Position numbers and translations under genes: made by a program. The notes beneath the pieces are model-generated. The model was given only the letters and a program-made list of their open reading frames with translations. It was not told the origin of the DNA and ran no database searches. Of a stretch of DNA of 64,000 nucleotides, positions 55,097 to 60,594 are shown in pieces (position 1 is the first letter of the stretch; every line of letters starts with the position of its first letter). Source of the stretch: a virus (taxonomy: Duplodnaviria > Heunggongvirae > Uroviricota > Caudoviricetes); the IMG/VR virus record IMGVR_UViG_3300032308_002078, positions 16,073 to 80,072 of that record. The stretch is one strand, 5' to 3'.

Positions 55097-55170
55097 GGAC
55101 CTTTAGCTCAGTTGGTTAGAGCAGCTCACTCATAATGAGAAGGTCACAGGTTCAAGTCCTGTATGGTCCA
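55097..55170 (+). tRNA. CAT-anticodon tRNA copy 3 (Ile2/lysidine-type or elongator Met)
   Basis: D-arm TAGCTCAGTTGGTTAGAGC and T-arm ACAGG TTCAAGT CCTGT resemble bacterial tRNA-Ile2; anticodon AGCTCA CTCATAA TGAGA. Confidence 0.6.
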
Positions 55171-55212
55171 CAAAAGTTATTTTAAATTTTTTTCATATTT
55201 ATTAACGTTCAT

Positions 55213-58122: not shown

Positions 58123-59524
58123 AATATTATTAATTTTAATACTGATTGGACTGCCTCTAACGGGGCAGTCCTTTACTTATAGTTATATAGATCCATGTAC
58201 TAAACAAAGTAAATTTATTTACGCCGATATGAGCGCTCCAATAGTGATCTCGTATTATGGACAAATACAAACGTTTACTTACACACAATTAAGTGACGGT
58301 ACATTTGATGGGTGGATTAATAGTATTTATACTAAATACCAAAATACCTCTCCTTGCCAAGGTGTTCTTACAACTACTACAACTACAACCTCTACAAACC
58401 AGGTTTCAAATATTATAGGAAATGTTACTAACTTATTAAGTTTAGATCTTTCTTCTATAACTAGCGGGGTTACTGGAGGAGTAGGTAGTAATATTGGAGG
58501 AACAACTTCATCAGGAACAACAGGAATAACAAAAACTAAAAAAGATGGAAATATTAATAATAACAATTCTGGGAGCAACAGTGATGGTAGTGGATCTTCT
58601 TCTTCAGAGGGAGCAGGACAAACAGGACAAAATGGAGGAAATCCACCAGAAAATCAAGGTGGGAATGGATCCTCAGGACAAGGAGGAGGTGTAGATGGAA
58701 ACAATAATTCAAATAATAGCAGTGGTTCTTCTAGTGGTTCCAACAGTAGTGGGAGTGGTAGTAGCGGTAGTGGGGAAGGACAACCTCAAGATAAACCAAC
58801 TGATAAACAAATTGAAGATCAAAAAGTAGAAACTCAAAAGACTTCTACTCAAGCTTCTGCTAAAGCTGCTTCTAAAGCCAAAGTTGAAACCCAAAAACCA
58901 GCTATTTTAATGACTGGTGACATTGTTGGGGTTCAAACAAGATCTGATGGTTCTCAAGATGCTAGAGGTACTATGTCTTTTACTCGTGTAAAAGGAGACG
59001 GTACTGCCTCAGTAGGTTTTTCTGCTGATTATATGGTTAATGCTAAAATAGGTAACTTATCAGCTGTTAGGTCTTGGATTGGCACTAATAAAAAAGGTAA
59101 TAAACATATTAATGTTGCTTCAGTAGGTTTGGGTATTTTACCTCAATCAACTACAGGTAGTGGTTTATTAATACGAGTAAACTCACTTAAAAATTTTACA
59201 GCTTTATATGGTGTTTCTGGTACTTATGGGCAACTGTATGGGGAGGAATTAATATCAACTATTGCTATTGCTGGTTTTATGTATAAAGGAAAATTAGCTA
59301 AAGCAATAGACGCTACAATTATTATGGCAGGTATTTATTCTCCTTACTCTAAATTTTATACAGAGTCTATTTTTGAGGCAAAACCAATTGTTATTCCGTT
59401 TTTGAATCTAAATTATAAACTAACTAAAACCTTTGGTATTGGATTAACAGGTGGAGGTACTTATATAGCAGGACAAGATATTTTAAATTTTCAAATATTA
59501 ATGGGTGCTAAATTAAAAATATGA
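58106..59524 (+). CDS. secreted protein with long Ser/Gly/Asn/Thr low-complexity linker and beta-rich C-terminal domain
   Basis: Signal peptide MYLKTKILLILILIGLPLTGQSF; T-rich and SGSNS... linkers; C-terminal alternating hydrophobic pattern suggests beta-barrel or beta-sandwich. Confidence 0.4.
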   Translation: MYLKTKILLILILIGLPLTGQSFTYSYIDPCTKQSKFIYADMSAPIVISYYGQIQTFTYTQLSDGTFDGWINSIYTKYQNTSPCQGVLTTTTTTTSTNQVSNIIGNVTNLLSLDLSSITSGVTGGVGSNIGGTTSSGTTGITKTKKDGNINNNNSGSNSDGSGSSSSEGAGQTGQNGGNPPENQGGNGSSGQGGGVDGNNNSNNSSGSSSGSNSSGSGSSGSGEGQPQDKPTDKQIEDQKVETQKTSTQASAKAASKAKVETQKPAILMTGDIVGVQTRSDGSQDARGTMSFTRVKGDGTASVGFSADYMVNAKIGNLSAVRSWIGTNKKGNKHINVASVGLGILPQSTTGSGLLIRVNSLKNFTALYGVSGTYGQLYGEELISTIAIAGFMYKGKLAKAIDATIIMAGIYSPYSKFYTESIFEAKPIVIPFLNLNYKLTKTFGIGLTGGGTYIAGQDILNFQILMGAKLKI

Positions 59525-60594
59525 GGTATTTATTTTTTATATTATATTTATTAAGTATAAAACTTAATGCCCAATCACCATTATGTGCTAGTAGACCAAC
59601 AACTTTCTGTTGTGAATATGTTTCTAGTGTAACAATTAACGGAAGAACATTTGCTGGAAGTACAGGATTTACTTCAACCTCAGGCGGTAGTCCTGCGGGT
59701 TATTATGATTATGCTTATACAAAAGATACAGTTCCTAGAATCACTGCTGGTCAAAGTATCTCAATTTCATATACAGCTGTTACAAATGGTAATTATATGG
59801 AGTATTTTAAGTTATGGATTGATTTTAATGGTAATGGAATCTTAACAGATGCTGGGGAATTGGTTCATAGTTCTAATTATCAATGGACAGGTACTAAAAC
59901 AGTTACTGCTACTTTTACTGTTCCTACTTCTGTTTACAATGGAGAGGTTTATATGAGATTTGTAATGCAATATTCAGGTTCACCTACTATCTGTGGAACT
60001 TACCCTTATGGAAATACATTCGATTTTAAAACAAGAATTGTAGGTGCTACTGATCCTTTTTCTTATACAGGTTATATTTACAACTCAGAAGGAATAGGAA
60101 TACAGAATATACCTGTTAAGTTTTATTCTAAGTTAAAATCATCTTCAAGCTATACTTACGAGAGTAGTGTTAATACAGATGCAAATGGAAAGTATACAAT
60201 TTCATCTATTAAAGATGCTACTACTTATGATTTCCAAATTGAAATAAGCAGTTTAACTATTTCATCTCCTGCTGTTAGTGATGCTCAATCATTTAATCAA
60301 AAAGTTTTATCTCAATCTTTTAACTCAAGAGACTATTACAGAATGGATGTTAATGGAGATAATAACTTAACTATCACAGATGTGTATTTGATTTATGCTA
60401 GAATAATAGGAAGAGGATGGAGAAGTGGAATACCTATTTATAGAATATTTACTCCAACAGAATGGAATACAATTAGTACTTCATCATCAAACCTAAAATC
60501 AACCTACTCAGGAACTCAAACAATTACTTTAAGTGGAGTTGCAAATAAAGGTAATTCTAATTATTATTTATTTCGTACAGGATATAGAAATTAA
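59521..60594 (+). CDS. secreted protein with dockerin-like Ca-binding repeat
   Basis: Signal peptide MRYLFFILYLLSIKLNAQSP; YRMDVNGDNNLTITDVYLIY repeat homologous to that in ORF 55213. Confidence 0.4.
   Translation: MRYLFFILYLLSIKLNAQSPLCASRPTTFCCEYVSSVTINGRTFAGSTGFTSTSGGSPAGYYDYAYTKDTVPRITAGQSISISYTAVTNGNYMEYFKLWIDFNGNGILTDAGELVHSSNYQWTGTKTVTATFTVPTSVYNGEVYMRFVMQYSGSPTICGTYPYGNTFDFKTRIVGATDPFSYTGYIYNSEGIGIQNIPVKFYSKLKSSSSYTYESSVNTDANGKYTISSIKDATTYDFQIEISSLTISSPAVSDAQSFNQKVLSQSFNSRDYYRMDVNGDNNLTITDVYLIYARIIGRGWRSGIPIYRIFTPTEWNTISTSSSNLKSTYSGTQTITLSGVANKGNSNYYLFRTGYRN

Follow-up and report, generated by a model that had tools for sequence, protein, structure and literature searches.

Two kinds of phage gene come closest to the system considered here. 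Cargo of the system for type IX secretion (T9SS), carrying type-A C-terminal sorting domains (CTDs), is encoded by 'Cryophage', where it varies among phage variants (Bellas et al. 2020, Nat Commun; PMC7468147), and open reading frames (ORFs) with T9SS sorting domains are present in crAss-like phages (PMC6949934). CsgG/CsgF operons have been described in pelagimyophages and in the OM43 phage Melnitz, with sibling capture, uptake and lysis timing among the proposed roles (PMC7029224, PMC9004378), 'sibling capture' having been put forward for the phage CsgG operon in PMC7029224. Here we analysed 64,000 nucleotides of a Caudoviricetes virus (IMG/VR record IMGVR_UViG_3300032308_002078, positions 16,073 to 80,072; this whole stretch is referred to below as the window), in which six consecutive genes, A to F (55213-61059), may encode a late-expressed envelope complex that includes a T9SS-exported scaffold with swappable lectin-type heads. 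We favour this reading tentatively, at a little under an even chance. An earlier inspection of the letters alone (the original prediction) had marked part of the same region as an island of host-like surface and secreted proteins and had regarded T9SS cargo on a phage as unexpected, a view that the precedents above contradict. T9SS cargo and CsgG operons each have phage precedents, and their combination appears to be undescribed: a literature search returned no report of a cohesin-based scaffold in Bacteroidota phages, nor of the six-gene cassette.

Domain architecture of the cassette proteins

Gene A (ORF 55213; 55213-57105, plus strand, 630 amino acids) opens with MKNLLLTLVLGLFTLTSSAQ and, as judged by sequence inspection, begins with an N-terminal Sec signal peptide (MKNLLLTLVLGLFTLTSSA/QS), which is followed by an N-terminal cohesin-like domain, a module shared with gene E, a cohesin and a T9SS type-A CTD, all encoded on the plus strand. 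The cohesin domain (residues 404-525; 56422..56787) matches PF00963 with 49.9 bits against a cut-off of 24.1 and has a median identity of 74% across the clade. The CTD (residues 551-628; 56863..57096) had been recognised in the original prediction, and both sorting-domain models proposed there for its verification score above their cut-offs, PF18962 with 52.1 bits (cut-off 27) and TIGR04183 with 44.5 bits (cut-off 23), extending over residues 551-628 or 551-629 of 630. It is found in 74 of the 74 clade members that bear the cohesin, and is the least conserved part of A (median identity 49%). Judged from these profile matches, A is a bona fide type-A CTD protein of the T9SS encoded by a phage. 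Residues 50-155 (55360..55677) are a candidate second, diverged cohesin-like domain, which stays unconfirmed at 19.1 bits, below the Pfam Cohesin cut-off of 24.1 (E=0.0015, profile positions 18-123 of 139).

The segment between the two (residues 218-363; 55864..56301) recurs as residues 209-357 of E, as detected with a hidden Markov model (HMM) of the E C-terminal modules (E=6e-25). A dockerin-like calcium-binding repeat common to ORFs 55213 and 59521 had been noted before; the repeat is indeed shared, and it belongs to a larger module of ~145 residues, in which the last part of a beta-sandwich is joined by a dockerin-like pair of helices bearing a calcium loop (DVNAHNGDITIAD) and by a C-terminal part of ~60 residues. 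Among the ORFs of the window, the HMM finds this module in A and E only. An apparent similarity of the E module to D arose artificially from a truncated D sequence (L047_2931) among those used for training, and it was gone once that sequence had been taken out.

Gene E (59521-60594, plus strand, 357 amino acids) encodes, after a signal peptide, a GEVED head that is followed by a beta-sandwich and by the constant dockerin-like module. The GEVED assignment, which the original prediction had proposed to check, holds for residues 95-170 (PF20009, 54.2 bits against a cut-off of 24.4). Across related loci, the slot after D harbours at least four alternative head classes: a C-type lectin (PF00059, 60.8 bits) in 30 loci, a 400-residue class without an assigned family in 22, GEVED in 12, the window included, and PA14 (26.5 bits) in 11. 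All of them share the signal peptide, the beta-sandwich and the constant docking module, and the heads are confined to this slot, with no similarity to tail-fibre domains or to other proteins of the window. Head class differs in 14 of the 52 locus pairs in which both flanks are at least 90% identical, and 189 pairs with flanks less than 70% identical carry the same class. Every head comes from a ligand-binding family. By this distribution E is a swappable-head gene, the heads of which are traded between near-identical backbones, a pattern expected of a protein that interacts with the host surface.

Gene B (57107-57433, plus strand, 108 amino acids) shows, on inspection, an acidic N-terminus, one transmembrane helix (AIIGAITTAVTAGGAWFATHL), a periplasmic stretch rich in Pro, Ala, Lys and Glu, and a C-terminal Trp (…EEDPW). 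This architecture, including the invariant C-terminal Trp, is kept in all four lineages described below, and from these features B is a putative inner-membrane-anchored, Pro/Ala-rich tether. Gene C (57427-58122, plus strand, 231 amino acids) carries an LSGC lipobox, one of just two lipobox candidates in the entire window, in agreement with the earlier description of ORF 57427 as a lipoprotein; the lipobox Cys is missing in the cultured phage immuto and in two related loci, L085 and L086. Searched exhaustively, 1.84 billion cluster representatives yielded just 155 relatives of C. A profile built from 38 diverse family members aligns with structures of E. coli CsgG over ~175 positions (E=7e-5), and 16 of the 38 match the Pfam CsgG family PF03783 directly (best E=1.9e-17), C of the window itself reaching 13.5 bits, under the cut-off of 20.8. 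C has the CsgG fold and is a diverged outer-membrane lipoprotein of the CsgG superfold. A Y-P-x-L motif is nearly invariant in the loop of the C family that corresponds to the CsgG constriction loop. Residues 143-160 and 177-190, the tips of the would-be membrane-spanning hairpins, are polar or charged in 53 of 53 aligned members and have no alternating hydrophobic pattern, which is why C is probably a periplasm-facing ring or plug lipoprotein and not a channel. No cassette protein has a Pfam or NCBIfam match to CsgA, CsgB, CsgE or CsgF. When 50,697 phage records were searched with C by tblastn, homologs were found in immuto phages only and in no pelagimyophage; one phage protein in BFVD carries a CsgG annotation.

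Gene F (60607-61059, plus strand, 150 amino acids), a core member of the cassette with 75 ORFs across the loci, aligns as a family to the C family with an hhalign probability of 91% (E=1e-6, 121 columns), and its profile has no significant sequence match in the PDB. According to this alignment, F is a short secreted paralog of C with an alpha/beta fold of the CsgG/LptE type. Gene D (58106-59524, plus strand, 472 amino acids), with a GTG start codon, encodes a signal peptide, a small alpha/beta N-domain with two conserved Cys (residues 22-78; AlphaFold2 model), a stalk of ~180 residues (85-264) that is predicted to be disordered and consists of Ser/Gly/Asn/Thr low-complexity sequence, and a C-terminal part modelled as 12 long antiparallel strands (residues 266-470). 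Both the linkers and the beta-rich C-terminus that had been described for ORF 58106 are therefore present. The C-terminal part is predicted to be an outer-membrane beta-barrel of 12 strands; a fold search of D did not tell barrel families apart, so that D is at most a candidate for a type Va autotransporter, a class in which an N-terminal passenger is threaded through a 12-strand C-terminal barrel, and the N-domain has no similarity to tail-fibre or other window proteins. A perfect 10-bp GC-rich hairpin (GGACTGCCTC-TAAC-GGGGCAGTCC, 58148-58171) lies inside the signal-peptide coding region of D, starting 26 nt past the stop codon of C, and could be a modulator of C-to-D translational coupling or an attenuator.

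Downstream of F, a small holin-like protein with two transmembrane helices (61061-61324), a holin (61324-61737; Phage_holin_4_1, 29.6 bits) and an endolysin of the GH19/PG_binding_1 type (61740-62567; PHROG 181, E=5.7e-64) follow on the plus strand. From A to the endolysin the block is unbroken, with genes overlapping or separated by at most 12 nt, and this packing of the cassette with holin and endolysin suggests late co-transcription and co-expression. The original prediction had seen here a run of four translationally overlapping signal-peptide genes ending before the lysis genes. The coupling is real, but the run comprises five genes, since 57107-57433 (B), membrane-anchored and without a signal peptide, had been omitted; nor does it end before the lysis genes, as the block continues through F (60607) and the gene at 61061 up to the holin and endolysin. 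All six products are predicted to be Sec-targeted, with cleavable signal peptides on A, D, E and F, a lipoprotein signal on C and an N-terminal transmembrane helix on B. PHROGs contains no family for any of A-F. A sigma-70 promoter scan stayed at chance (40 versus 44.5 +/- 6.3 expected), Bacteroidota-type promoters being outside the models of the tool, and terminator-like sites in the scan were mostly intragenic.

Relatives and origin of the cassette

A scan of IMG/VR with C as query returned 80 loci, in all of which A-B-C-D occur in the same order, and F is present in all related loci. Metagenomic proteins include ~1,340 relatives of C and ~1,380 of D of the window type, as well as ~1,480 relatives of D of the immuto type, on contigs that reach about 190 kb. 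Two clades of phages of ~160-190 kb from environmental metagenomes have kept the cassette, which is very abundant in both, and one of these clades has a cultured, Flavobacterium-infecting member. Four deep lineages carry it, including this cultured virulent Flavobacterium phage, vB_FspM_immuto (host Flavobacterium sp. LMO8). In immuto, gp013 is an E-type protein headed by a C-type lectin (41% identity over the docking module), gp014 and gp015 together correspond to A (29.5% identity over 94% of its length), gp016 to B (56% over 64 residues), gp017 to C (42%), gp018 to D (27% over the full length) and gp019, directly after D, to F (a family member by phmmer). In the annotation of immuto, gp013 and gp015 have domain-based names only, the other five (gp014 and gp016-gp019) being hypothetical proteins. 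A is split there into a docking-module protein and a cohesin/CTD protein, each with its own signal peptide; as halves that one genome fuses and another encodes apart, the two probably associate. In L085 and L086, which represent two more distant lineages, the cassette genes are interleaved with endolysin and holin-like genes. From the host of immuto and the labels of metagenome-assembled genomes (MAGs), we infer a Bacteroidota host for the phage of the window.

Many relatives contain genes that the window lacks. The start of A is overlapped in most relatives by the gene of a secreted protein of ~153 residues (for example L008 4993-5454, L010 5329-5790 and L034 3404-3853), which bears an HExxH motif, VLVHESLHL. 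No Pfam family matches this possible processing protease of the cassette, and in the window tRNA-Met and ORF 54436 occupy its place. Likewise missing from the window is a protein of ~116 residues with two transmembrane helices, which many relatives encode between A and B (L008 7337-7681, L034 5739-6089, L086 6902-7474); in L086 its C-terminal tail contains two calcium-loop-like DxDGDG motifs. Other insertions between A and B include a 387-residue Ala/Glu-rich protein in L039, and genes resembling homing endonucleases, of GIY-YIG and HNH types by inspection, are found inside the cassette (L080 5489-6091, L029 7399-7995).

The original prediction explained the region as a moron-type acquisition of host genes and named flanking host DNA of a prophage as a condition that would undo its own proposal. 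Bacteroidota-style signal peptides and the T9SS CTD are indeed host-type features, and the E slot is truly flexible. Yet A-E do not differ from the remainder of the phage in GC content or in GC content at third codon positions, and their codon-frequency distance (0.126) is that of random five-gene subsets (0.125 +/- 0.025). Synteny, complete in 80 of the 80 loci and extending to the cassette of immuto, spans deep phage lineages at 27-56% identity, and phage genes flank the cassette on both sides in what is phage DNA. Among 185,579 species-representative genomes, a single degenerate peptide pattern detected four loci, all of them MAG contigs with a phage endolysin beside the cassette, and no cellular cassette locus; as the scan was restricted to one pattern and of limited sensitivity, this absence is weak negative evidence. 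Hence none of the marks of a moron (atypical composition, patchiness, cellular homologs) was found, patchiness being restricted to the head of E. On these sequence comparisons the cassette is an old phage module, and recently acquired host genes, either a moron or prophage-flanking DNA, are highly improbable. One 16.5-kb contig (L083, RFPL01000028.1) with the full cassette (84% identity in C) was binned in a 'Sphingomonadaceae' MAG; it is almost certainly a mis-binned phage contig, which makes MAG labels unreliable as host evidence here.

Adjacency to a tRNA gene had also been read as a mark of acquisition. The gene itself is where it had been placed: ARAGORN predicts a tRNA-Met (CAT) at 55097..55171 on the plus strand. 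This neighbour of the cassette, not a member of it, closes the phage's own plus-strand array of 24 tRNAs (50806-55171), which includes three tRNA-Met and two each for Leu, Ser and Arg. The position of the array varies among relatives, being upstream of the cassette, downstream of it or not within 8 kb, so that the adjacency carries no such meaning. Megablast matched nothing but this tRNA-Met, which is 93% identical to its counterpart in the Cellulophaga phages phi4:1 and phi17:2, where the cassette is absent after the tRNA arrays.

Additional features surround the cassette. Small ORFs are situated between the tRNAs of the array, for instance a 63-residue lipoprotein candidate at 50924-51115 (MKKVLFIAAIFALASC…), and ORF 54436-54873 (145 residues), between the main array and the last tRNA-Met, has a weak match to the DIP1984 family (E=2.9e-4, under the cut-off) and is kept in few relatives (59-71% identity). 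On the other side, 3' of the endolysin, ORF 62567-62944 (125 residues) has no signal peptide, a C-terminal motif resembling a calcium-binding loop (DVDGDGIPDHLD) and weak matches to TSP_3 and FG-GAP (E about 0.07). Five large proteins in a row at 11874-24384, with Gly_rich_2, Laminin_G_3 and sialidase-N domains and without signal peptides, have virion structural proteins of immuto and T4-like cyanophages as their best cultured matches, and are therefore probably tail fibres or receptor-binding proteins; ORF 25571-26416 (281 residues), downstream of the tail-fibre-like genes, has a clear signal peptide (MKKLLMTLVLTLMTALSLSA…). The window also encodes ThyA and an RNA ligase and, at 44175-47752, a homolog of MoxR-like ATPases (so annotated in several large phages) near a protein with a DUF2201/VWA-like metallopeptidase domain. 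MoxR and VWA genes are often paired.

A possible surface complex and its alternatives

The most economical reading of the cassette retains the infected-cell surface role suggested in the original prediction, A being found among other Sec-targeted envelope proteins. After entry of the six products through Sec, the host T9SS would carry A over the outer membrane by means of its type-A CTD, exposing one or two cohesins. E, as well as A's own copy of the module, could then dock on a cohesin through the dockerin-like module, as the co-occurrence of module and cohesin and the split of A in immuto indirectly suggest, resulting in a scaffold with a carbohydrate-binding-type head, GEVED in the window and a C-type lectin, PA14 or another fold in relatives. 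C and its mini-paralog F might combine with the D barrel into a unit of lipoprotein and barrel like PelC/PelB or LptE/LptD, tied to the inner membrane by B, and this sub-complex would anchor or export the CTD-less components (E and/or the stalk and N-domain of D). The displayed lectin array would bind strain-variable surface glycans and either glue infected cells to susceptible neighbours, as in 'sibling capture', or coat receptors of the infected cell and of its debris, both of which would help progeny to reach new hosts instead of being lost. The fullest form of this proposal, a virus-encoded, largely self-contained surface 'lectinosome' in which a T9SS-exported cohesin scaffold, its own anchoring machinery and recombining plug-in heads act late and bind strain-specific glycans, is possible but rather doubtful. 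Decoration of the virion was considered as well and is rejected, given that the cassette proteins are all Sec-targeted, which the virion-like Laminin_G proteins are not, and that no other protein of the window has the docking module.

A number of observations weigh against the proposed surface complex. Dockerin is a weakly supported, suggestive label for the A/E module: it scores 13.1-17.0 bits against Dockerin_1 (PF00404; gathering score 22.9, E 0.0067-0.11), and although dockerins, mostly cellulosomal, account for 11 of the 16 PDB matches of the module family profile, the best of these is non-significant (E=0.016). The module contains a single canonical calcium loop, DxNxDxxxxxxD (DVNGDNNLTITD), and in place of two tandem F-hands the alignment shows an upstream segment that retains the helix and not the loop. 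Cohesin type and E dockerin type display no co-variation signal beyond shared ancestry. E itself is devoid of a CTD and has no evident route across the outer membrane, and the pLDDT (predicted local distance difference test) values of 55-77 for the D barrel correspond to moderate confidence only. In L085 and L086, the A-like protein ends past the cohesin without a CTD, and a small separate lipoprotein after it has a weak CTD-like match (Por_Secre_tail, E=8e-4); T9SS export is thus not cassette-wide, and the complex could be periplasmic. Finally, the entanglement of the cassette with lysis genes in three of the four lineages fits a role in lysis equally well.

Such a role would make the cassette a lysis accessory or a means of outer-membrane disruption, with B and C, together with F and the D barrel, acting as a spanin-like bridge of the envelope, or forming or gating an outer-membrane pore that would aid the last step of lysis or set its timing, and the cohesin and lectins being secondary. 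The packing with holin and endolysin in the window and the interleaving in L085 and L086 would agree with this, as would the overlap of B and C, which resembles that of i-spanin/o-spanin pairs, and a lysis-timing role has been proposed for the CsgG of phage Melnitz (PMC9004378). The window, which represents 64 kb of a ~165-kb genome, showed no further spanin-like pair and, close to the lysis genes, no lipoprotein candidate besides C; PHROGs does not assign a spanin to this region either. C, however, is a globular CsgG-fold protein of 231 residues, unlike the short, Pro-rich o-spanins, and the loss of its lipobox Cys in immuto, L085 and L086 does not fit; the periplasmic part of B is Pro/Ala-rich and non-helical, with no coiled coil. 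Beyond the transmembrane helix of B, adjacency to lysis genes is the sole feature of a two-component spanin that B and C display, and even this is relaxed in immuto, where the cassette is ~6 kb and ~18 genes away from the endolysin. Considering also that the cohesin, the CTD and the head-swapping lectins would be left unexplained, we regard a lysis function, the main rival of the surface complex, as unlikely.

The same complex might instead serve superinfection exclusion or receptor masking alone, roles that the original prediction had suggested, its heads binding the cell's own receptor glycans and blocking competing phages, as in exclusion of the T5 Llp, Cor or TraT type. The diversity and exchange of heads look like an arms-race locus, and inter-strain competition or superinfection has been suggested for variable phage T9SS cargo (Bellas et al., PMC7468147). 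We consider this unlikely as well, because late expression, as suggested by the lysis-gene packing, would be bad timing for a lytic phage, the defence and exclusion families of PADLOC have no match among the cassette proteins, the E heads do not resemble the tail-fibre domains of the phage, and similarity to TraT exists at the superfold level only. Quite improbable, in turn, is a curli-like (type VIII-like) export system, in which a C channel would export unfolded substrates, such as the disordered region of D, E or fibre subunits, to build extracellular fibres, much as has been proposed for the CsgG/CsgF operon of pelagimyophages. CsgG is the best structural and profile match of C, the nearly invariant 'YP.L' coincides with the constriction loop, CsgG/CsgF operons exist in large aquatic myoviruses (PMC7029224, PMC9004378), and there is the CsgG-annotated phage protein in BFVD. 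Against it stand the polar or charged hairpin tips throughout the family, the lack of matches to CsgA, CsgB, CsgE and CsgF in every cassette protein, the low-complexity region of D, which has no curlin-type repeats and varies in composition by lineage, and the tblastn search, which found no pelagimyophage.

Were the surface-display reading true, phages would alter the adhesion of Bacteroidota cells shortly before lysis, with a specificity that is swapped by recombination, and effects on aggregation, particle attachment and phage transmission would follow in a group of bacteria that are key degraders of algal organic matter. A 'lectinosome', if it exists, would capture neighbouring hosts or shield progeny from debris, giving 'sibling capture' a concrete molecular basis and bringing cohesin-dockerin scaffolding to a virus, a use of which the literature search gave no example; a modular docking system of this kind may also be of biotechnological interest. 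Found beyond the original prediction were the cohesin domain, the CsgG-type nature of the lipoprotein, genes B and F and the head-swapping of E. The cassette brings together two puzzles that had been apart so far, the T9SS cargo of phages and their CsgG operons, and with immuto and Flavobacterium sp. LMO8 in culture both are open to experiment.

Comparison with known systems

The proposed C/F/D unit is reminiscent of PelC/PelB and LptE/LptD in that a lipoprotein gene adjoins a beta-barrel gene. There is no kinship at the sequence level, and an interaction of C with D would follow from gene adjacency alone. PelB has 16 strands and LptD 26, compared with only about 12 in D. The predicted scaffold, for its part, recalls the cellulosome, as represented by CipA and the anchoring scaffoldins of Clostridium thermocellum, where a cohesin-bearing surface scaffold receives interchangeable subunits through calcium-loop modules, and the hierarchy of separate anchoring, adaptor and functional-subunit proteins in immuto extends the likeness. 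In contrast to the cellulosome, the docking module here measures 145 residues, has a single canonical F-hand and scores below the Dockerin_1 threshold; binding domains take the place of enzymes as subunits, a T9SS CTD replaces an SLH domain or sortase as anchor, and the whole is encoded by a virus.

With the operons of pelagimyophages and Melnitz, the cassette has in common its occurrence in large aquatic myoviruses and its organisation as a small conserved operon around a CsgG-family lipoprotein and uncharacterised proteins. C is far more diverged than its counterparts there, falling under the Pfam cut-off and seemingly lacking the transmembrane hairpins; no CsgF match is seen, the hosts are Bacteroidota, and C is accompanied by a cohesin/CTD scaffold, by lectin heads, by a barrel of 12 strands and by a tether in the inner membrane. 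Cryophage is alike in being a Bacteroidota phage with type-A sorting domains and variable cargo, a PA14 protein included, for which remodelling of the infected-cell surface has been proposed. Its CTDs, however, are attached to enzymes (an endoglucanase and GH39) and to the PA14 protein, whereas the cassette has its CTD on a non-catalytic cohesin scaffold and its variable heads carry a docking module instead of a CTD. Moreover, the CTD gene is here part of a conserved six-gene envelope cassette, in the company of CsgG-fold and barrel proteins.

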